This document shows positions 10,814 to 46,686 of a stretch of DNA of 64,000 nt, piece by piece; positions within the stretch are counted from its first letter, which is position 1, and each line of letters starts with the position of its first letter. This stretch comes from Candidatus Roizmanbacteria bacterium CG_4_9_14_0_2_um_filter_38_17 (lineage in GTDB: Bacteria > Patescibacteriota > Microgenomatia > GCA-00278855): positions 494-64,493 of the forward strand of contig PFSB01000021.1 in the NCBI GenBank assembly GCA_002788855.1, in the 5' to 3' direction. The translations under genes and the position numbers were made by a program. The notes under the pieces were generated by a model, which was not told the origin of the DNA, did not search any database, and worked only from the letters and a program-made list of their open reading frames with translations.

Positions 10814-10947
10814 GGTTTACCCAAACTTAATTATACTCTGTTTTAATGATATTGACAAAAAATTACATATATTCTAAAATACATAGACAATATGAAACAA
10901 AGTAATATTATTCTTGATGTCCGCTACATCCTCTTTACCGAGGATTT

Positions 10948-10993
10948 TTGCGGGATGTAAGAATTAATAAATAATTAATTAACATCCCCGCAA
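10948..10993 (+). promoter_or_regulatory. Long hairpin in the divergent intergenic region upstream of the 11006 ORF
   Basis: ttgcgggatgt...acatccccgcaa form 11-bp arms with an AT-rich loop. An inner ccccGCAAgggg stem (GNRA loop) plus T7 ends 1 nt before the ATG at 11006. Confidence 0.35.
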
Positions 10994-11005
10994 GGGGATT
11001 TTTTT

Positions 11006-11794
11006 ATGACTCTAATAGAAATTAGTATTGGTCCATTAACAGGTCAAGAAAGAGAACACATAAGGCGTATGCCTAATCCTTATGGTAAGCGTTTTGTTAA
11101 ACCCGAGTTTATCAACGACGGAATCCGTTGTGGAAGACTAGTACTCACACCAGTTCTTAAAGCCCTACATCAGCTAGGCATATACCCTGAAAAAGGACGG
11201 CTACTAAATAGATACGGCTATACAAGATCAACGCTATTATTTGGAACTACTCAGCATAATGCATCACATATAGAAGTCAAAACAGAAACTCCTCCAGAGC
11301 CCACACCACCAATCCAAATTGAACAACCTCTTATAATATCCAATCTATTAGAAATTACTACAGTACTTGACCCGAATCAGGTGACTTATGAAAACTCATT
11401 ATTAGAACTATGTGAAAGAAATCAAAAAAGAGCAGATGCGGTAGGTTTTGCTGCAGACCTAGTTTGCGAGTTATTGAACGAACACAAACCAGATCCTAAT
11501 GTTACCCTTAAACCTTGGCATTTTGTAGAATTTAAAGAAGCAAAGACAGGTATTGGACATGATGTAACTCTAAGAAGATTAAACAAAAAAAATCCACCTA
11601 TGGCAGCTGGAATATGGGGATTTATACAGGGAATGGAAAGAGGACGCGCTCCTACGTGTGGCGTAAGACTAGTTGATTCAATTGCTCAAACACTCGAAAA
11701 ACCAAGTTTAATAAACTCGATGTTTGAATTAGCAAAACCAGATCCACAATCGACAGATTCATGGAATATGGCAAATCCACAAATAAGTATATAA
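11006..11794 (+). CDS. Hypothetical protein (orphan, locally higher GC)
   Basis: Clean 262-aa ORF with no recognisable motif. A REP-like element lies just downstream. Confidence 0.5.
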   Translation: MTLIEISIGPLTGQEREHIRRMPNPYGKRFVKPEFINDGIRCGRLVLTPVLKALHQLGIYPEKGRLLNRYGYTRSTLLFGTTQHNASHIEVKTETPPEPTPPIQIEQPLIISNLLEITTVLDPNQVTYENSLLELCERNQKRADAVGFAADLVCELLNEHKPDPNVTLKPWHFVEFKEAKTGIGHDVTLRRLNKKNPPMAAGIWGFIQGMERGRAPTCGVRLVDSIAQTLEKPSLINSMFELAKPDPQSTDSWNMANPQISI

Positions 11795-11890
11795 AGATCC
11801 GATCTATATGAGCAAAACAAAGCGAGGCTTTTCATGAAATGGAAGACCTGTTTTAAGTTGAGCGGTTATATTCCGAGATGTGCGCTCATT

Positions 11891-11925
11891 CACACTCCAG
11901 GAGTGATATAGGTTAACACCTAAGG
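11891..11925 (+). repeat. Degenerate REP-family copy (REP-E)
   Basis: cacactccaggagtgatataggttaacacctaagg matches the cactccaggagtg palindrome and gttgacacct tail of the other copies. Confidence 0.5.
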
Positions 11926-11926
11926 T

Positions 11927-13552
11927 TTATCCTTGTTTTATATCTTTAATCATCAGCTGGAGGTTTTCATTTCCATTCCATTTATTTAGATCCAGAGTAA
12001 AAGCAATATCTACTGGTTCTTTTACATCTATTTTTTCAAGCATATATGCCTTACTAAACCCAATTGCATCTATCCCATTAACTTTTACTTTTAAGTGATT
12101 ACCTTCTTTACCAATTTTGCGAACATCATCAAGATATATCTGGTTCATACTAAATATGGGCTTCTCATTGCTTGTTCCAAATGGCTTTAGCTCCTCTATT
12201 TTATCCAATAGATCCCGCGTTATCTCTTCCATATTTAATTCTAGATCAATATTCAAAACTCTCTCCAAAAGCTCTGGATCAATCTGGTCTACAGCTTTTT
12301 GAATCAGTTCTTCTGCTACCTGAGAAATATTCCCCGTCTCTACCGAAAATCCCGCCGCCATTGTGTGCCCACCAGCGTTAACTAACTGGTCCTCAACTTG
12401 ACGAATAAGTTTAATTATATCTACACCAGGAATAGATCTAGCCGAAGCTTTAGAAATGCCATTTTCATTTTGAGCAATAACAATCGTGGGACGATAAAAG
12501 CGGCGACTTAGACTACCAGCTATAAGCCCTATTATTCCTTCATCATATGAAGAGTCAGCGATGACCAAAAGAGGTGGCATCCCTTTTACCCCTTTAAGTT
12601 GTTCTAGGCTCATATCAATCTGTTCATTTGTCAGCAACTGCCTCTTCCTATTTAGACTTGCAAGCTTTTGAGCAATCGCGATTGCTGCTCGTTCATCCTT
12701 TGTACAAAAAAGCCTTAGAGCATCTAAGGCGTCACCTAATCTACCCGCTGCGTTTATTCGGGGCCCTAGGATATACCCTATGTGATACGGATCAAGATCA
12801 GTTCCAAGTAGACCTGACTCTTGTAGTAGAGAACGAATTCCTACTCGACTAGATTGAGATAGTAGTGGTAGACCATGGCTAACTATTTGACGATTTGGAC
12901 CTTGAAGAGGTAATACGTCTCCAATCGTACCAAGAGCAGCAAGCGCTAGTCGCTCTGGATTGTCCCTCAGATTATCTATCTGTCTTGAAACAAACCAGGA
13001 AACTCCTGCTCCGGCAAGCGTAGTTGTATGCACAACCGCGATTGCATGACTACATAGCTTAACTACCTCAGATTTGTTAGGCGCTTGATGATGGTCTGTG
13101 ATAATAACATCTACTCCAGCGTCCGTTAATTGCATAACAAAATTGGAAGCTGTAATTCCATGATCTACCGTTATCACAAGAGTCGGATTATATTTTTCCT
13201 TAACACTCTTTATCCCTGCAGAAGAAAAACCATATCCCTCACTTTTCCGATCTGGAATATAGGGCCACACAACCGCACCTAGTTCATGCAAGGTCTCCCA
13301 CGCAATTGCAGTTGCCGATACACCATCTATATCAAAATCACCATATACTACAATTGTCTCCTTATTTTTTATGGCCTTCTTAATTCTGACTAGAGCTTTA
13401 GCCAGCTGAGCCTCATCTATTCCAACTTCTTTTGCTGTAAGAGTATAAGGAGAGTGAGGTTTTAGAAAATCACTCGCTGATTCTACTCCTCGTAATTTTA
13501 ATAAGTGAGTAAGGATATTTTCAGATTTACGTGTCTCAACATTCCAGCGCAT
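11927..13552 (-). CDS. recJ: Single-stranded-DNA-specific exonuclease RecJ
   Basis: DHH family motifs (DFDIDGVSATAI, DHG, ITDHHQ) and DHHA1-type C-terminal region. Confidence 0.85.
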   Translation of the reverse strand: MRWNVETRKSENILTHLLKLRGVESASDFLKPHSPYTLTAKEVGIDEAQLAKALVRIKKAIKNKETIVVYGDFDIDGVSATAIAWETLHELGAVVWPYIPDRKSEGYGFSSAGIKSVKEKYNPTLVITVDHGITASNFVMQLTDAGVDVIITDHHQAPNKSEVVKLCSHAIAVVHTTTLAGAGVSWFVSRQIDNLRDNPERLALAALGTIGDVLPLQGPNRQIVSHGLPLLSQSSRVGIRSLLQESGLLGTDLDPYHIGYILGPRINAAGRLGDALDALRLFCTKDERAAIAIAQKLASLNRKRQLLTNEQIDMSLEQLKGVKGMPPLLVIADSSYDEGIIGLIAGSLSRRFYRPTIVIAQNENGISKASARSIPGVDIIKLIRQVEDQLVNAGGHTMAAGFSVETGNISQVAEELIQKAVDQIDPELLERVLNIDLELNMEEITRDLLDKIEELKPFGTSNEKPIFSMNQIYLDDVRKIGKEGNHLKVKVNGIDAIGFSKAYMLEKIDVKEPVDIAFTLDLNKWNGNENLQLMIKDIKQG

Positions 13553-13585: not shown

Positions 13586-14932
13586 ATGCAGCTTAAACTA
13601 CCAGATTTACCAAGAAAAATTATTAACCAACTGCAACAAGCAGGTTTTGAGTGTTATGCAGTTGGAGGTGGTATCCGTGACTTACTCAGAAGCAAGTCAC
13701 CTACTGACTGGGATTTCACGACCGATGCCACTCCAGAAGAAATTCTTAAAGTTTTTCCTGATGGCTATTATGACAATAAATTTGGTACGGTTGGAATACC
13801 TATGAAAAATTCAATTATTGAGATCACAACCTACCGAACAGAATCTGAATACAAAGACAATCGCCGCCCGGAAAAAGTAGAATGGGGCAAATCTCTTGAG
13901 GAAGATCTCAATCGTCGTGACTTTACCATTAACGCCATTGCCACAAATGGCAAAGAGATCATTGATCCTTTTAACGGTCAATCTGACCTACAAAATAAGC
14001 TTATCCGTGCAGTTGGAGATCCAAATGCCCGGTTTAAAGAAGACGCACTGCGTATGTTGCGGGTAGTCAGACTCGCAACTCAACTTGAATTTTTGGTTGA
14101 GGATAAAACAAGAGATGCGCTTGAAAATGATGTTTCACTTCTTAAGAATATTGCACAAGAACGCGTTCGAGACGAACTGCTACGTCTGTTAAAAGCTGCT
14201 AATCCCGCCGATGGAATTCTCTTGCTTAAGCATACTGGTCTTCTACAGTACATTCTCCCTGAGCTTCTAGAAAGCTTTAAAATTGATCAAAAAAGCCCCG
14301 AGCGTCATCATATTCATGACGTAGGCACCCACTGTGTTGAAGCGCTTCGGTATTGCTCAAATCCTGATCCAGTCATAAGGCTTGCGGTTCTTCTACACGA
14401 TATTGGCAAGACTAAAACTGTAAACAAAGATAAATCTGGCATTACCACTTTTTATAATCATGAAGTTGCTGGAGCAAGTATGGCTAGAGATATATCTATG
14501 CGTCTTAAATTATCTAAAAAACAAACAGGTATGATTATTCGATTAGTGCGCTGGCATCAATTTAGTATGGAGGATACTCTGACAGATAAAGCAGTACGCC
14601 GCTTCATTAGAAACGTAGGACTAGAAAATATTCAAGCTATGCTAGATCTTAGAGTAGCTGATCGCAAAGGAAGCGGGGCCAAAGAAAGCTCCTGGAGATT
14701 CGAGTTATTTAGAAAACGCCTTATTGAAATTCAAAAAACTCCTTTCTCCATTCAGGATCTTAAAGTGGACGGTAACGATATAATAGAGGCTCTTAAAATT
14801 AAACCTTCCCGTCAAGTTGGAGAAATACTCGAAGCAATCTTTGATAAAGTAGACAATGACGAACTCCCTAATGAAAGAGAAAAATTACTGGAACAAATCA
14901 AATCTCTAACACCCACTCCAGGAGTGGGTTGA
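13586..14932 (+). CDS. cca: tRNA nucleotidyltransferase (CCA-adding) / poly(A) polymerase with HD domain
   Basis: GGxVRD and RRDFTINA Pol-beta nucleotidyltransferase motifs. HD domain HHIHDVGTH...LLHDIGK. Start refined to MQLKLPD. Last 7 codons (TPTPGVG*) are encoded by REP-A. Confidence 0.85.
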   Translation: MQLKLPDLPRKIINQLQQAGFECYAVGGGIRDLLRSKSPTDWDFTTDATPEEILKVFPDGYYDNKFGTVGIPMKNSIIEITTYRTESEYKDNRRPEKVEWGKSLEEDLNRRDFTINAIATNGKEIIDPFNGQSDLQNKLIRAVGDPNARFKEDALRMLRVVRLATQLEFLVEDKTRDALENDVSLLKNIAQERVRDELLRLLKAANPADGILLLKHTGLLQYILPELLESFKIDQKSPERHHIHDVGTHCVEALRYCSNPDPVIRLAVLLHDIGKTKTVNKDKSGITTFYNHEVAGASMARDISMRLKLSKKQTGMIIRLVRWHQFSMEDTLTDKAVRRFIRNVGLENIQAMLDLRVADRKGSGAKESSWRFELFRKRLIEIQKTPFSIQDLKVDGNDIIEALKIKPSRQVGEILEAIFDKVDNDELPNEREKLLEQIKSLTPTPGVG

Positions 14933-14946
14933 GTTGACACCTAAGG
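14911..14946 (+). repeat. REP element copy A
   Basis: acccactccaggagtgggttgagttgacacctaagg. Inverted relative to copy B on the other side of the RAYT gene. Confidence 0.8.
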
Positions 14947-14969
14947 AATATTTATAGTATTGTCATATT

Positions 14970-15662
14970 ATGCCTTCACGTAAAATACCTCTCATAACGC
15001 AGGGTATTTACCACATCTTTAATCGTAGTGTAGCTGGACAAACTATATTTAGAAATATAAGAGAATATCAAATATTTTTAGACTTATTAGAATACTACTC
15101 GTTTACCCATGCAAAACACCGCTTTTCTCACTATAGAAGACTCGAAGATGAAACAAAGAAGCAAACGCTCAATAAACTATATCAACAAAGCGATAAACTT
15201 GTAGATATATATTCTTTCTGCATTATGCCAAATCACTATCACTTACTATTAAAGCAACTAACCGATGATGGCATAAGCAAATTTATCAGACAAATCCAAA
15301 ATAGTTATGCCAGATACATCAATATCAAAACACAACGTAATGGAGCCTTACTTCAATCCCCATTTAAATCCGTTTTAATAGAGAATGACGAACAATTTAT
15401 CCATGTAGCAAGATATATTCACCTAAATCCCTTAACATCGTACATTCTAACAAACCAGTCCGAACTAGCTAACCTAGAGTGGTGCTCATATAAAGACTAC
15501 TGCAGTGCAAATAGTAGAGGTTTTGTTAACACATCAAACCTCATGTCCTACTACAATTCAATTGATGAATTAAACAAATTCACCCTAAATCAGGTTGATT
15601 ACCAAAGAGCACTAGCCAAGATAAAACATCTTACACTTGAAAAGTCCTTTCCAAATCCTTAA
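14970..15662 (+). CDS. REP-associated tyrosine transposase (RAYT; IS200/IS605-like Y1 HUH transposase)
   Basis: HUH motif MPNHYHLLL and catalytic-Tyr region ARYIHLNPL. Flanked by inverted REP copies A and B. Confidence 0.8.
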   Translation: MPSRKIPLITQGIYHIFNRSVAGQTIFRNIREYQIFLDLLEYYSFTHAKHRFSHYRRLEDETKKQTLNKLYQQSDKLVDIYSFCIMPNHYHLLLKQLTDDGISKFIRQIQNSYARYINIKTQRNGALLQSPFKSVLIENDEQFIHVARYIHLNPLTSYILTNQSELANLEWCSYKDYCSANSRGFVNTSNLMSYYNSIDELNKFTLNQVDYQRALAKIKHLTLEKSFPNP

Positions 15663-15693
15663 GTGTCAACCTAACCCACTCCAGGAGTGGGTT
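15663..15693 (-). repeat. REP element copy B (inverted orientation)
   Basis: gtgtcaacctaacccactccaggagtgggtt is the reverse complement of the copy A pattern. Confidence 0.8.
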
Positions 15694-15728
15694 CTCACAT
15701 TACGTTTCTGAAATGTAGCTAAATTCAT

Positions 15729-29133: not shown

Positions 29134-29348
29134 TAGCCCGCAAAATCACAAGATATTAATGAACTGGGAGCTGAGCATTAAATAGTCATTCGCTTTCGTC
29201 CAATAAAAAATATCATAGTTGATATGATAAGAGTTAGAGTTGCCACAATTAGAGACTATAGTCCCTCTATAAGAGATTCATATCCATCTCTAGGCTCAAA
29301 TAAAGGCTCTATTGCCACATAGAAAATGAAACCCTATAAATTCTAAAT

Positions 29349-29373
29349 GTGTCAAACGTCCAGCGTTTGACAC
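29349..29373. repeat. Perfect 10-bp-stem hairpin (gtgtcaaacg-tccag-cgtttgacac) adjacent to REP-C
   Basis: Shares the gtgtcaa/ttgacac half-site with the REP tail. Confidence 0.6.
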
Positions 29374-29394
29374 AGAAATAACTACTATATATAC

Positions 29395-29430
29395 AACCCA
29401 CTCCTGGAGTGGATTGAGTTGACACCTAGG
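29395..29430 (+). repeat. REP element copy C
   Basis: aacccactcctggagtggattgagttgacacctagg. Confidence 0.8.
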
Positions 29431-29524
29431 GATATCCATATCCCATACTCTATGTAGAAAAAAGTCTGATTAATATTAGAGAGCTTATTTGCAATCCCAT
29501 AAAAGGTCCAGCCTTTTATACTTC

Positions 29525-30895
29525 TTACTCCTCGTCCCATTTAATAAACTCGTACTCTGAGGATGTAGGAAAATAAGGAGGTGGACCATAACGAAGATGA
29601 CTGTCATATGTAATATCCCTATCAACAAAACCTGACCAAATTGGATTACCATAATTCCAGTACGACTTCTGATTGGAAATAACCGAACCATAAATCTCTA
29701 ACTTATCACGTATTGCGTTTGAATAATAACTACACACCCACCAATAGCTATAGAAGTGACGAATAATTCTGCCTTTCTGCGCCATTAAAGCTGCATCAAT
29801 CTGGAAAGTACTTGGAATATCCAATGCGTAATATATATCTTGTTGGGCAACTAATCCTAATGAATCTGACCCATCTTTTTCCTTATATATTAAATTGTCC
29901 AATATCCAGATCACTTCAGAGGAAGTATCTATCGGAAAAGATGCAGCCACAACTGTGGTTTTACCTTCCACAACTCCATCAATCCAGACTGTGTCTTCAA
30001 CAAAAATAATCTTATTATCACTTAGGCTATATGTTCCTATTAAGTTCTCTGTACGAATAACCTGATTTAATGTCTGACATCCTCCCTCTGGATCCCATCC
30101 CTGTCTTGATCTTGTACGATTAACCTCATAAACACTAACCGTTCCAGTATCATTAAAGCGTAAATGATAACCAAAATAAGAGGACGCAGCCAGGTATATG
30201 CCACTCTCTTGGGCAGATAGGCGCATATGGGCAAAATCTACCACCACACTATCAAAATCTATAGAAGTTGTGGGGTATTCCCACAGTGTATTATTAGGAC
30301 CATCTCCCCATACACCGTTCTTTGTATCAGATGGGCTACAGCCTGTCTCAAATCCACAGGTATAGGTCTCCTTAGCACTTGATACAACTGACTCATTAAT
30401 ACCATCCATACGAATTCCACCATTAGAGTGAACATCACCGTAAGTCGTAAGGCCTTGCCCGAACCATACATTAGCATTATGCAAAAAAGAAAACCTTGCG
30501 TATGACGGCTGACCATAGGCAGCTTCGATAGTCCGTTTAGCATTAGGCTCCTCCAAAGTCCAACCAGTCGAGACAATTGTAACGACACTTGACCCTTCCC
30601 CTGGTGGTATCACATCCAGCTCAAACTGGCCGATTTGATCTCCCTGTGGATCAAAATAATCATGTATATATGGACCAGGTTCTCCAGTACCATCCTGAAA
30701 GTCTTCTGGAGCATGCGCTAAATGCCAGCGATAATAGTTTGCTCCAGCCTCTGCTATATTAGTAGCCATCTGTCTATTCTCCTGGCGCACCCAACCCTTT
30801 ACATGCACTGCCGTTACTGCCACTAAACTACCTAAAATAATCACAGATAAAGTAGCGACTAATAATACAAGAATTGTAACAGATCCAACTTTCAT
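29525..30895 (-). CDS. Large N-terminally anchored pilus-associated protein (function unknown)
   Basis: Single N-terminal TM/pilin-like hydrophobic segment then a ~430 aa extracytoplasmic domain. 4-bp overlap with the upstream minor pilin. Confidence 0.45.
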   Translation of the reverse strand: MKVGSVTILVLLVATLSVIILGSLVAVTAVHVKGWVRQENRQMATNIAEAGANYYRWHLAHAPEDFQDGTGEPGPYIHDYFDPQGDQIGQFELDVIPPGEGSSVVTIVSTGWTLEEPNAKRTIEAAYGQPSYARFSFLHNANVWFGQGLTTYGDVHSNGGIRMDGINESVVSSAKETYTCGFETGCSPSDTKNGVWGDGPNNTLWEYPTTSIDFDSVVVDFAHMRLSAQESGIYLAASSYFGYHLRFNDTGTVSVYEVNRTRSRQGWDPEGGCQTLNQVIRTENLIGTYSLSDNKIIFVEDTVWIDGVVEGKTTVVAASFPIDTSSEVIWILDNLIYKEKDGSDSLGLVAQQDIYYALDIPSTFQIDAALMAQKGRIIRHFYSYWWVCSYYSNAIRDKLEIYGSVISNQKSYWNYGNPIWSGFVDRDITYDSHLRYGPPPYFPTSSEYEFIKWDEE

Positions 30896-31542: not shown

Positions 31543-32881
31543 TTATCTGGATTGAAGAGGTTGCATCTTCATATCCTGTTAAAGAAATAGTTAACTCATA
31601 GGCAGCTGCGTTTAGAGAATTAAAGAAAGCATGACCAAAATCTGGATCACCCTCATCACCTGATTCGATCGTTTCATCATAAGACAATAAACCATTAATA
31701 AGTCTAGCAGTTGAACTTGAAAGTGGAACATCTCCGCTATCTGCTACTAATACCAATAAACTACCGTCGCCCGGGCTATCAGGCGCTAAGCTGAGATCTA
31801 TACTCAGTTGTTCGTCAGCATTCAATCCGATGGGAAGCGCAGGATTACTTCCTGCCAAATCATAAGAAACATCAACTACTTCAAACATATAACTATCAAA
31901 TTCCATATTAGAGAAAGTATAAGTACCACCTGCATTTGTCGAAACTAACTCATCAAATTTATATATAGGAGATTCCGTCTCATCATTTCCAATTATTTTT
32001 TCTCCTCTGACTCTAAGCTCCACATTTGTTAATGTAGGAAAACCAGCTAAACGAGATCCATAGGTCTTAACTGTCAATGTAGATACTTTATCGATTGCGA
32101 AGCTAGCTTCAGAAACTTGCCCTTCCAACACAGTTATATGAGATTTAGAGGAATTAGTAACTTCCTCTGCGCCATAGGTACGATCAGACGAGTATCCAGC
32201 TTTAGTTACTATAATTTCATAACTTTCAATTGCGCTAGGTGCACCAGGTAAGATAACGCGACCAAACGAATCAGAAGTTATCGTTAAGTCCACTTGAGGA
32301 TTAACTGTTGAATTAACAATATTCACGTCTGCACCATTTAAGGGGTTTCCTTCTGAATTAAAGACTAACAGAGAGAGCGTTCCACCTCCATCATTTGTCT
32401 CGATCTCTTTTGGAACAATATCAGTTACTAAAACTACTGGCCTACGGCCCGATGCAAATGCCCCTGCCCACTCAAGTTTAACGCGGACTCGCTTATAATC
32501 CGTATTTACCAAATCAGCCGGCGCTTCCCCATCAAATGGATCGTCTACGTACGCAATTGTTGTTGTCACTTCAAATATAATTCCCCCTAAGGAAACTTGC
32601 TCAATTGGCGCAATTGGTCCAGCTGGGATACCTCCAACTGTTCCTAGATCCTCGTAACTAAGGTTTCTGGCTTCCTCTATCTTTTCATTTGCAAGTAGCC
32701 TCGCCGTATGTCGAACACGAGTCTGTCCGATGCTTTCAAAAACTAGCTGGGTGATTCCAAATAAACTGCCAGTTACAATCAAAAAAATTGCCATCCCCAC
32801 AACGGCCTCAATAATAGTAAACCCATTCCAGGAATGTGCTTCACATTCCTGGAATGGGTGCTTGTTGCTCATATTTATCAC
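31502..32881 (-). CDS. Large minor pilin (PilV/FimT-like) with extended leader
   Basis: Motif ...HSWNG|FTIIEAVVGMAIFLIV. The 24-aa leader contains the in-frame palindromic insert (FQECEAHSWN). Confidence 0.6.
   Translation of the reverse strand: MINMSNKHPFQECEAHSWNGFTIIEAVVGMAIFLIVTGSLFGITQLVFESIGQTRVRHTARLLANEKIEEARNLSYEDLGTVGGIPAGPIAPIEQVSLGGIIFEVTTTIAYVDDPFDGEAPADLVNTDYKRVRVKLEWAGAFASGRRPVVLVTDIVPKEIETNDGGGTLSLLVFNSEGNPLNGADVNIVNSTVNPQVDLTITSDSFGRVILPGAPSAIESYEIIVTKAGYSSDRTYGAEEVTNSSKSHITVLEGQVSEASFAIDKVSTLTVKTYGSRLAGFPTLTNVELRVRGEKIIGNDETESPIYKFDELVSTNAGGTYTFSNMEFDSYMFEVVDVSYDLAGSNPALPIGLNADEQLSIDLSLAPDSPGDGSLLVLVADSGDVPLSSSTARLINGLLSYDETIESGDEGDPDFGHAFFNSLNAAAYELTISLTGYEDATSSIQINEDVFTTIILNQK
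32823..32859. repeat. Perfect 17-bp inverted repeat with 3-nt loop (cccattccaggaatgtg-ctt-cacattcctggaatggg), intragenic
   Basis: Read from sequence. Second copy of the same element family at 53809..53843. Confidence 0.9.
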
Positions 32882-45066: not shown

Positions 45067-45102
45067 AACCCACTCCTGGAGTGGGTTAGGTTGACACCTC
45101 GG
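45067..45102 (+). repeat. REP element copy D
   Basis: aacccactcctggagtgggttaggttgacacctcgg; overlaps last 4 codons of pyrD (..EVST*). Confidence 0.8.
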
Positions 45103-46237
45103 GATAATTACTATTTTCACCAATTGCCTCTGAAATTGAGTCGTATCCATCCTTTTCTAACAACTCCACCAACCCTTGATTAATTTCACTGATTACCTGA
45201 GGGCCTTGGTAAATCATACCCGTTATTAACTGAATGAGCGATGCACCCGCTTTTATTTTCTTATAGGCATCCTCTGCTGTAAACACCCCACCACAACCAA
45301 TAATCACCAACTTACCCTTGGTCTTATTGTATACATACTTAATTAGCTCGTCGGATAAATCCTTCACAACCTTTCCACTCATTCCTCCTTTATCTGGGAT
45401 ATTAGCATCTTTTATATTGGGATTGTTTCTAACTTTCGTCAAATTAGATATAACCAATCCATTTACTCGGTGATTAGCTACTACTTTTAATAATTCATCT
45501 ATTTCTTTTTTAGCAAGATCTGGAGACAACTTCACAAACACTGGTTTATTTACTTTAATCTTATCCAGTTCGGCTAATAATAGCCTAAGTCTTTTAGCAT
45601 CTGTAAAAGGTTCCCCTCCATACGCATTTGGACAGCTAATATTAACTGTTATATAACTTCCAATATTCACAAACACACTAAACGCTTTTGCATAATCTTT
45701 TATACCTGCCTTCGTAGAAACAGTTTTTTTGTTATTAGTCTTAGCTACACTAATTCCGATTGGAATCTTAAACCGCATATTTTTAAGCTTTGCAGATAAA
45801 ATTTGGCACCCCTTATTCTTTAATCCGTAATAAACTACAAGCGCCTTAGAATTAGGCAATCTCCAGAGCCTTGGCTTTGGATTACCGTCACAAGACTCAC
45901 CTGTAATTGAACCAACTTCCGCAAATCCAAACCCCACTGAAGGCAAGATCTGAGTAAGCTGGGCATCCTTATCAAAACCAGCGGCTAAGCCAACAGGATT
46001 AGAAAAATAAATGCCCAGTATGATTTGCGATAATTTTGGATTACTATAGCTAAATAGAAGATTGGTAATGGATCTTGTTAAAGAGAATTTCCCCAATAGC
46101 TGACCAACCTTTATCAGCTGATCGTGAACATCCTCCGGATCTAGTTTAAAAAACACCGGTTTTATAAAACTCCGATACACAAAACCAATAATTATATTTC
46201 TTAACTGCATATACACTACAACGTTAAGATAATACAT
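45086..46237 (-). CDS. pyrD: Dihydroorotate dehydrogenase (class 2-like with N-terminal extension)
   Basis: NPVGLAAGFDKD, catalytic region and GGMSGKVV FMN/substrate motifs. Confidence 0.8.
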   Translation of the reverse strand: MYYLNVVVYMQLRNIIIGFVYRSFIKPVFFKLDPEDVHDQLIKVGQLLGKFSLTRSITNLLFSYSNPKLSQIILGIYFSNPVGLAAGFDKDAQLTQILPSVGFGFAEVGSITGESCDGNPKPRLWRLPNSKALVVYYGLKNKGCQILSAKLKNMRFKIPIGISVAKTNNKKTVSTKAGIKDYAKAFSVFVNIGSYITVNISCPNAYGGEPFTDAKRLRLLLAELDKIKVNKPVFVKLSPDLAKKEIDELLKVVANHRVNGLVISNLTKVRNNPNIKDANIPDKGGMSGKVVKDLSDELIKYVYNKTKGKLVIIGCGGVFTAEDAYKKIKAGASLIQLITGMIYQGPQVISEINQGLVELLEKDGYDSISEAIGENSNYPEVST

Positions 46238-46287
46238 AAATTAAAAATAAGCAAGATTATTAGCAGTCTGGTGTGCTTTCTGCTAAA

Positions 46288-46332
46288 ACCACGCTTAGCG
46301 TGGTAAAAAAACCACGCTTAGCGTGGTAAAAT
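46288..46332 (+). promoter_or_regulatory. Tandem duplicated 22-bp unit (aaccacgcttagcgtggtaaaa x2) upstream of rnpB
   Basis: Each unit holds the palindrome ccacgc-ttag-cgtgg and a TGgTAAAAt extended -10-like box. The second unit sits ~10 nt upstream of the inferred rnpB 5' end. Confidence 0.45.
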
Positions 46333-46335
46333 ATA

Positions 46336-46686
46336 AGCTGAGAGGAGGATGGATAGCTACTGTGTACCCAACGTGGTTCATGGAGGAAAGTCCAGACAGC
46401 TCCGGATGAGGGGATGGAGTGTAAGCTCCGACTGGCAACAGCTGGTGTCTTGATTCCGAAAGGATGATAGAACAAGTCTAGAATTAACTAGACCTGAGAG
46501 CAACAGTGACGAATCTTTGGCTAAATTCAGAATAAACTCTGAGCATGTCGAAGGGGTGAAACGGGCAATCCCACCCGCTGCAACCGTTGACTTAACCGTT
46601 TTAAGGACATCCGGCCAAGGTTAGAAAACGGGCACAAGATAAATTGCTATCTAAAACAGAATCTGGCTTACAAGCCTCCTCTCACA
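46336..46686 (+). ncRNA. rnpB: RNase P RNA (bacterial type A-like)
   Basis: GGAGGAAAGTCCAGACAGCTCC matches the universal GGAAAGUCCGGGCUCC (P4 5' strand). GGGGTGAAACGGG matches the P10-P11 AGGGUGAAAnGGUG. 3' ACAGAATCTGGCTTA matches ACAGAACCCGGCUUA (P4 3' strand). 5' gagaggagg pairs with 3' cctcctctc as P1. The ORF 46260..46475 inside it is spurious. Confidence 0.75.

Follow-up and report, generated by a model that had tools for sequence, protein, structure and literature searches.

The cca-secF locus

In a stretch of 64,000 nt from a groundwater bacterium of the candidate phyla radiation (CPR) with a tiny genome, Candidatus Roizmanbacteria bacterium CG_4_9_14_0_2_um_filter_38_17 (contig PFSB01000021.1; the whole stretch is hereafter called the window), a gene for a Y1/HUH-type transposase lies between two inverted copies of a short palindromic repeat, and further copies of this repeat are found elsewhere in the window. 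An earlier inspection of the letters alone (the original prediction) had taken this arrangement for a repetitive extragenic palindromic (REP) element family with its REP-associated tyrosine transposase (RAYT), and had placed five REP copies in the window. All five are present, four of them near-identical and the fifth (11890) diverged, at positions within 1 base of those predicted, as is the open reading frame (ORF) of 230 amino acids (aa) with the motifs MPNHYHLLL and ARYIHLNPL that it had described between the inverted REPs. We refer to the REP-RAYT-REP unit as the cassette. Its components, the gene upstream and the remaining REP copies are as follows.

13586..14932, plus strand: cca, CCA-adding enzyme (Pfam PolyA_pol/HD); its last seven codons (TPTPGVG) come from the left REP hairpin
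14911..14946, plus strand: left cassette REP; palindrome ACCCACTCC-A-GGAGTGGGT (14911-14929), tail TGAGTTGACACCTAAGG; predicted DNA fold -7.5 kcal/mol
14934..14963, plus strand: promoter-like site; TTGACA (REP tail, -35), 18 nt, TATTGT, 6 nt to the ATG at 14970; 10/12 consensus matches
14970..15662, plus strand: RAYT-type Y1/HUH transposase gene, 230 aa; HUH motif H89-Y-H91, catalytic Y149 in RYIHLNP
15657..15692, minus strand: right cassette REP, inverted; 10-bp palindrome at 15673-15693
29396..29431, plus strand: solo REP; palindrome starts at 29395; 93 nt downstream of the stop codon of the minus-strand ORF 29525-30895
45068..45103, plus strand: solo REP, overlapping the 3' end of the minus-strand gene pyrD
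11890..11925, plus strand: REP of a diverged sub-family, TCACACTCCAGGAGTGATATAGGTTAACACCTAAGG; 6-bp stem, TTAACAC tail; 1 nt from the recJ stop codon

Both cassette REP tails point inward, towards the transposase gene, and the stop codon of the gene (TAA, 15660-15662) lies within the tail of the right REP.

The repeat family

A search with the 36-nt consensus of the original prediction, allowing up to three mismatches, recovers the two cassette REPs and the solo copies at 29396 and 45068, against 0 matches expected from 100 shuffles of the window; the 17-nt palindrome core alone returns the identical four sites. The element consists of a perfect palindrome of 9-10 bp, (A)ACCCACTCC-W-GGAGTGGGT(T), followed by TT-RR-GTTGACAC-CTNNGG. 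Each copy has a tail of 18 nt that includes TTGACAC and a hairpin loop of 1-3 nt, and as single-stranded DNA the hairpins have predicted folding energies of -6 to -10 kcal/mol. A linear motif, GTGTCWA, is conserved 4-6 nt off the hairpin foot, and conservation runs past the tail (GGAWT) in nearly all copies. The copy at 11890, while diverged, is a genuine member of the family, and the same sub-family brackets a different RAYT homologue on contig L014. No known RNA families or tRNAs were found at the repeats.

The transposase and its gene

The 230-aa protein is 100% identical to COW99_06085 of Candidatus Roizmanbacteria bacterium CG22_combo_CG10-13, and it passes the Pfam threshold for Y1_Tnp (PF01797; 36.7 bits against a cut-off of 23). 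Besides Y1_Tnp, no Pfam domain was found in it at E <= 0.1, including any helix-turn-helix (HTH) or DnaA_C-like distal domain. Its best NCBIfam match is NF047646, REP_Tyr_transpos (E = 1.4e-15); the IS200 model NF033573 scores 16.4 bits against a cut-off of 55. Confidence in the AlphaFold model is high (pLDDT 89.7, pTM 0.86), and the closest fold in the Protein Data Bank (PDB) found with Foldseek is 4ER8, the E. coli TnpA-REP in complex with a REP hairpin (E = 2.2e-7, TM-score 0.67), with the TnpA structures of IS608 and ISDra2 matching about 1000-fold worse (E >= 2e-4). In a profile search against 4ER8 the HUH motif (PNHYH with PEHMH), the FQ/WQ motif and the Tyr motif (RYIHLNP with DYIYINP) all align, and the catalytic Tyr falls opposite that of TnpA-REP; a better alignment to an unrelated family lacking this Tyr, which the original prediction had named as grounds for abandoning its reading, is thus not what we find. 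Among 38 aligned homologues, N88-H89-x-H91 and R148-Y149-x-H151-x-N153-P154 are invariant. The protein also has a helical C-terminal extension of about 75 aa, in which W171, S173, Y177, F204, Y211-Q-R213 and K219-H220 are conserved. Judged by its alignments and predicted fold, the gene is a putative class-2 Y1/HUH single-strand-DNA endonuclease/transposase gene, a RAYT in the broad sense, much as originally predicted. The family is widespread in Microgenomates (951 matches). No tnpB accompanies the cassette, and as regards carriage by phages, neither a REP nor a RAYT relative was found in IMG/VR and the PHROG match was negligible.

The promoter-like site upstream of the gene has counterparts elsewhere: a TTGACA followed after 16-18 nt by a TAnnnT hexamer, which in turn lies exactly 6 nt before the start codon, is repeated upstream of homologues on contigs L014, L032, L033 and L034. 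This arrangement suggests that the left REP tail may supply the -35 box of the RAYT promoter. With only 6 nt from TATTGT to the ATG, a leaderless mRNA is implied.

A family-wide architecture

The bracketing of the gene by inverted palindromic copies extends beyond the window, being found also on L014, L019, L032, L033 and L034. The same genome encodes a paralogue (P0035, 52% identity; contigs L019 and L020) whose gene has another palindrome, AAACACACACT-T-AGTGTGTGTTT, on either side. This palindrome does not occur in the 64-kb window; each of the two RAYT paralogues thus has its own repeat family. Homologues that are 50-58% identical, on L014, L032 (Gottesmanbacteria), L033 and L034 (Daviesbacteria), are likewise each flanked left and right by a hairpin of their own (such as ATCACACC-T-GGTGTGAT and CCCACACC-G-GGTGTGG). 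On these four contigs the left side shares a common layout, namely a hairpin, 4-6 nt, TTGACAC and a constant distance of 34-36 nt to the start codon, while on the right GTGTCWA precedes the hairpin.

A further homologue (51% identity) on L016, at 145-816 on the minus strand, has inverted REPs on both sides and a TAG at codon 3, and is probably a pseudogene or has a different start.

Cassette divergence among lineages

Contigs from related organisms that cover this locus fall into three lineages, which we compare here with the window.

Lineage A (L005, L021-L027): Cca 93% identical to the window in aa sequence; cassette between cca and secF
Lineage B (L006, L030): Cca 80% identical to the window in aa sequence; cassette between cca and secF
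Lineage C (L031): Cca 76% identical to the window in aa sequence; without the cassette, cca and secF overlapping convergently by 20 nt
14867..15697 of the window, no strand assigned: young tract, comprising the cca 3' end (about 45 nt), both REPs, the RAYT gene and 5 nt past the right hairpin; identity 98.6% to lineage A and about 96-100% to lineage B, against about 88% and about 70-78% in the flanks

The overlap of cca and secF in lineage C marks it as an empty site, and by this comparison the whole cassette is an insertion between the convergent genes cca and secF. Relative to lineage A, nucleotide identity is 98.6% over 14867-15697 (11-12 differences) and 84-95% in the flanks; relative to lineage B, it is 93-100% in the cassette and 62-84% in the flanks. 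The tract of high identity has its right edge 5 nt outside the right hairpin and its left edge about 45-60 nt inside native cca. Synonymous divergence (dS) follows the same pattern. Between the window and lineage A it is 0.06 for the RAYT gene and 0.42-0.58 for recJ, cca, secF and secD, and between the window and lineage B it is 0.04-0.08 for the RAYT gene and more than 1.8 for the flanking genes, so that in two lineages the cassette dS is 10- to more than 25-fold under that of the flanks. Fixed differences of its own, at 11-12 sites including E170Q and N190S, set the lineage-A RAYT allele apart from the window.

Synonymous divergence so far below that of the flanks indicates that the cassette has been recently exchanged. 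The simplest reading of the alignments is a recent allelic exchange between lineages, in which one crossover would have taken place within a conserved stretch of cca and the other within or beside the right REP. We further raise the possibility, which we hold only tentatively and regard as rather doubtful, that REP-RAYT-REP is an actively exchanged unit sweeping through co-occurring CPR lineages that have diverged to the species level, always at a fixed locus, in which the REPs offer portable sites for homology or cleavage, the break falling near GGTGT^CAAC, and the left REP supplies the transposase promoter. If this were so, the RAYT lineage would renew itself horizontally instead of being a 'domesticated' gene passed on vertically, and the alleles of these lineages would form a natural record of REP insertion and removal.

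Repeats at the ends of host genes

Comparison of the lineages also bears on the genes that end in REPs and on the turnover of the repeats themselves, for which two further features of the window are needed.

45086..46237, minus strand: pyrD (DHO_dh, 235 bits); C-terminus 8 aa longer, the REP tail giving P-E-V-S-T-stop
10867..11919: lineage-specific segment of 1,053 bp, absent from lineages A and B; its right end is the REP at 11890

The original prediction had both cca and pyrD ending inside REPs, as the result of recent remodelling of their 3' ends. Both genes do end in REPs, and the remodelling has to be restated for each. The cca stop codon (TGA, 14930-14932) directly follows the left hairpin. 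Cca homologues usually end 3-8 residues past '...IK', and the ending is ...IKSLTPTPGVG in the window and in lineages A and B, and ...IKKTSS in lineage C. Because the hairpin-encoded tail is present in the window, A and B and missing from C, it arrived with the cassette; the tail is real, and it is common to three lineages. PyrD, which in relatives ends in GSE* or GSK*, ends in the window in ENSNYPEVST*, and here the REP did not create the new tail by inserting: a lineage-specific 1-nt deletion carries the frame past the ancestral TAG into a REP tail that was already there.

The pyrD site also illustrates the turnover of the repeat. The REP is complete in the window, consists of the tail and left arm only in lineage A, and is reduced to ACACCTCGGG on L029, where ACACCTCGGG is followed by a GC-rich hairpin and a T-run resembling an intrinsic terminator. 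Next to recJ, the copy at 11890 occurs in this lineage only (it is absent from A and B). The 262-aa ORF (11006-11794) of the 1,053-bp segment that it terminates has no Pfam or PHROG match. Both comparisons put breakpoints inside the REP tail. Under a target-site model, in which the distal tail ACACCTNNGG is target DNA, pyrD on L029 keeps ACACCTCGGG and the ancestral part at recJ is TAAGG only; since nearly all copies remain conserved past the tail (GGAWT), a target origin and a partial deletion are inseparable here.

On L013, a 421-aa secreted-looking ORF (11366-12631) contains two tail-less REP hairpins in frame (TPTPGVGS and PTPIPGVGS), and the peptide that they encode is the one that ends cca in the window.

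Dispersal and orientation of the repeats

Density and orientation of the repeats were assessed in the 64-kb window together with about 21 kb of the same genome. Three solo REP copies occur in the 64 kb, against 0 expected. A scan of a genome collection for the REP returned one contig of 1.5 kb, binned to another metagenome-assembled genome from the same site, and a scan of metagenomes returned 16 stretches. After stretches homologous to the window had been dropped, at least nine further distinct REP loci were counted in related organisms. Confinement of the REPs to this one contig, which the original prediction had listed as evidence that would count against it, is thus not what we find: copies are present on other contigs and in related organisms. 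The element of the L032 type, too, has a solo copy 5 kb from its gene.

The distance between solo copies and stop codons is 0-93 nt, and in five of them (11890, 29396 and 45068 in the window, and those on L007 and L013) the order is the same, with the stop codon of the upstream gene followed by GTGTCAA and then the hairpin. As GC skew is negative throughout the plus strand of the window, the window copies place GTGTCAA and hairpin on the G-rich strand, that is, the lagging-strand template.

Pairs of contigs (L008 and L012, and L009 and L011) carry homologous DNA on one side of a REP and unrelated DNA on the other, which indicates REP-associated rearrangement or assembly breaks at the repeat.

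Origin and function of the module

The module is most probably an atypical REPtron, one without GTAG, in a CPR bacterium. In such a REPtron the enzyme would bind the folded REP hairpin on single-stranded DNA. Since the hairpin changes along with the enzyme and the linear motif does not, GTGTCWA, 4-6 nt 5' of the hairpin foot, may be what the enzyme reads as an analogue of the GT[AG]G guide; it would then cleave and rejoin at this motif, by which REP copies could spread and be removed. If the left REP tail doubles as the RAYT -35 box, the enzyme could also regulate its own expression. A number of observations weigh against this explanation. The hairpin feet are A/AACCCACTCC and lack the 5' GT[AG]G tetranucleotide that defines a canonical REP (Quentin et al., 2018, PMC6006769). 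No inverted doublets of the REPIN type were found for the REP, the solo copies all being singlets and the sole inverted pair being the one that flanks the gene, and copy number is modest in the sequence covered. The NF047646 score of 57.4 is under the equivalog cut-off of 80, sequence identity to the solved TnpA-REP is only about 14%, and the orientation on the lagging-strand template, with n = 4 copies, is only suggestive. In view of the missing GT[AG]G tag and the NCBIfam score below the equivalog cut-off, the enzyme should be taken as a RAYT in the broad class-2 sense and not as a canonical one.

An autonomous insertion sequence (IS) of the IS200/IS605 family, of which the REPs would be the ends and the solo copies remnants like miniature inverted-repeat transposable elements (MITEs), would account for the insertion of the cassette relative to L031, for an age 10- to more than 25-fold below that of the flanks, which implies movement between genomes, and for the Y1 fold that the protein has in common with IS608 and ISDra2 TnpA. 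We nevertheless consider it unlikely. The cassette sits at one chromosomal site in all three lineages that have it and is single-copy in 85 kb of this genome, where the paralogue is 52% identical rather than near-identical. Its ends are inverted copies of one element, whereas an IS200/IS605 element has hairpins that differ between its left and right end and share one orientation, and its Tyr motif here is Y-x-x-x-N-P (class 2) and not Y-x-x-x-Q (class 1; Quentin et al., 2018, PMC6006769). The score against the IS200 model and the lack of tnpB point the same way, and the left edge of the young tract, inside native cca, argues for homologous exchange rather than transposition.

It is highly improbable, in our view, that the repeats are instead host regulatory elements under selection (3'-end RNA stabilisers, terminators or protein-binding sites) and the Y1 gene an unrelated neighbour, because chance adjacency does not predict that all family members examined, including the paralogue of the same genome, have their own hairpin on both sides. 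The closeness of solo copies to stop codons, the constant side that faces the upstream gene in five of them and the identity of repeats between diverged lineages would suit such elements; the presence/absence and truncation polymorphisms would not, and a role as intrinsic terminators was considered and rejected, there being no T-run at the repeats. A secondary host role would be compatible with a REPtron. Finally, many contigs break at or near REPs, which are shared 36-mers, and the near-identity of the cassette across lineages could on that account be an artefact of chimeric contigs joined at the repeat. To this we give next to no weight: the lineage-A allele, with fixed differences of its own, recurs with the same flanks in at least seven contigs from different samples and assemblers, which makes chimeric assembly unlikely, and lineage B is represented in two independent assemblies (L006 and L030).

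Relation to known systems

REP/RAYT systems have been characterised almost wholly in Proteobacteria and a few other phyla, and full-text literature searches found no description of one in CPR/Patescibacteria. The TnpA-REP (RayT/YafM) and REPtron of E. coli, reportedly described by Nunvar (2010), Ton-Hoang (2012) and Messing (2012, PDB 4ER8), resemble the module in several respects. The E. coli protein too is a Y1/HUH enzyme with a Y-x-x-x-N-P motif, its gene is bracketed by inverted palindromic elements that also occur at gene ends, and it provides the best structural match (4ER8), with the HUH, W/FQ and Tyr motifs aligned. In contrast, TnpA-REP has 165 aa against the 230 aa found here, which include the 75-aa C-terminal extension, and the two share about 14% identity; the repeats here have no GTAG, a perfect stem of 9-10 bp, a long TTGACAC tail and no BIME or REPIN doublets, and the host is a CPR bacterium. 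With the REPIN-RAYT systems of Pseudomonas and Enterobacteria (Bertels and Rainey, 2011; Bertels et al., 2017) the module shares a single-copy RAYT for each REP family, paralogue-specific repeats and the extragenic position of the repeats. Those systems are said to replicate as inverted doublets and to be vertically inherited, evolving like housekeeping genes, whereas the REPs here are singlets and the cassette dS is 10- to more than 25-fold under that of neighbouring housekeeping genes, in contrast to the picture of vertical inheritance. IS200/IS605 TnpA (IS608, ISDra2) has the same fold and HUH/Tyr chemistry, and recognises single-stranded hairpins via a short adjacent guide or target motif; its class-1 Y-x-x-x-Q, asymmetric ends, multiple copies and frequent tnpB are not seen here.

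Also comparable are the TIRYT proteins with their TIRtrons (Di Nocera et al., 2013, PMC3733652), which correspond to TnpA-Y1 subclass 2.1 and to group 1 of Bertels (Quentin et al., 2018, PMC6006769). The signature of subclass 2.1 is NH[YF]H, FQ and Y[IV]HLNP with a median length of 238 aa (Table 1, PMC6006769), and the family described here has PNHYH, FQ/LQ and YIHLNP in proteins of 222-230 aa, as judged by inspection of motifs and not by phylogeny. By the criteria of Quentin et al. the module falls in class 2, and by motif signature and length it is closest to subclass 2.1. In TIRYT systems, too, the inverted repeats around the gene differ from GTAG REPs; Di Nocera et al. (2013, PMC3733652) describe some TIR families as self-complementary and of moderate abundance, and horizontal gene transfer is suspected in TIRYT/group 1 as well. 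Unlike in TIRYTs, a distal HTH (Bac_DnaA_C / HTH_23 / HTH_28) was not detected in the protein, and the TIR motif GGGGWSAS is matched at 6/8 positions only (GGTGTCAA). Moreover, Quentin et al. (2018, PMC6006769) saw no REP-like structures beside subclass 2.1 genes; in the present case a clear hairpin lies on both sides of the gene and is also dispersed. The family pairs a subclass-2.1-like enzyme, of a kind earlier reported not to be REP-associated, with clear GTAG-less hairpin repeats. Its repeats, where they lie on stop codons, alter protein C-termini in genomes with almost no spare DNA, and the co-occurring lineages, in which sites are filled, truncated or empty, provide a natural series for tracing how such repeats move. 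The family-wide architecture of hairpin plus TTGACAC and the young, exchanged cassette appear to be the points most worth following.

Other repeats and a possible island in the window

Several further repeats and structured elements lie in the window or on related contigs.

29348..29374, no strand assigned: hairpin with the REP-tail motif; 11-bp stem (29348-29358/29364-29374), -12.2 kcal/mol, z = -7.3
32821-32859 and 53809-53843, with L019 6060-6092, L013 4261-4293 and L007 959-1000: doublet palindromes

The hairpin at 29348-29374, which the original prediction had recognised as sharing the GTGTCAA half-site, is real; it lies 20 nt upstream of the solo REP palindrome, and both of its arms bear the motif (GTGTCAA / TTGACAC). 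Its relation to the REP tail has this one locus as its basis, and GTGTCAA overall shows no enrichment (11 observed against 6.7 expected). Hairpin and solo REP together fall in a block of 119 nt (29330-29448) with 100% identity to lineage A, over a background of about 90%. Directly left of this block (29329/29330), the window is without about 212 bp found in lineage A (L004 and L010).

The intragenic palindromes are doublets of the form CACATTCC-A-GGAATGTG-NNN-CACATTCC-T-GGAATGTG, with an 18-bp perfect stem (-20.9 kcal/mol). They are found in frame within a prepilin leader (32821-32859), within miaA (53809-53843) and, on L019 (6060-6092) of the same genome, within a PaaX-like gene. Such in-frame insertion of doublets is reminiscent of Rickettsia palindromic elements. 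The original prediction had linked these palindromes to the REP core through their CCWGG centre, by common origin or by a shared Dcm-like methylation site. The two hairpins match except for one compensatory pair, C-G to T-A, and a common origin is plausible but unproven on this comparison. The methylation idea finds no backing: CCAGG and CCTGG occur 44 and 46 times in the window against Markov expectations of 42.4 and 45.9, counts that speak neither for nor against methylation.

A bacterial class-A RNase P RNA lies at 46341-46686 on the plus strand (RF00010, full-length model, 79 bits against a gathering threshold of 100, E = 2e-24). An exact 32-nt copy of its 3' end is found 5.2 kb downstream, at 51836-51867. 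Between the two 3'-end copies are a haloacid dehalogenase (HAD) hydrolase, three ORFs without a Pfam match, an ORF with a phosphoribosyltransferase (PRTase) domain and a ThyA-like ORF, with no recognisable integrase. The 32-nt repeat looks like a putative att-type duplication left by an island inserted in rnpB. Between the start of pyrD and the RNase P RNA gene, at 46285-46330, are two exact tandem copies of a hairpin unit, AAAACCACGCTTAGCGTGGTAAA, the centre of which (CT-T-AG) resembles the palindrome flanking the second RAYT paralogue. Finally, about nine tandem copies of a 9-nt unit, GCCGAAGGT, occupy 2222-2311, just past the start of the minus-strand ORF 1261-2211.

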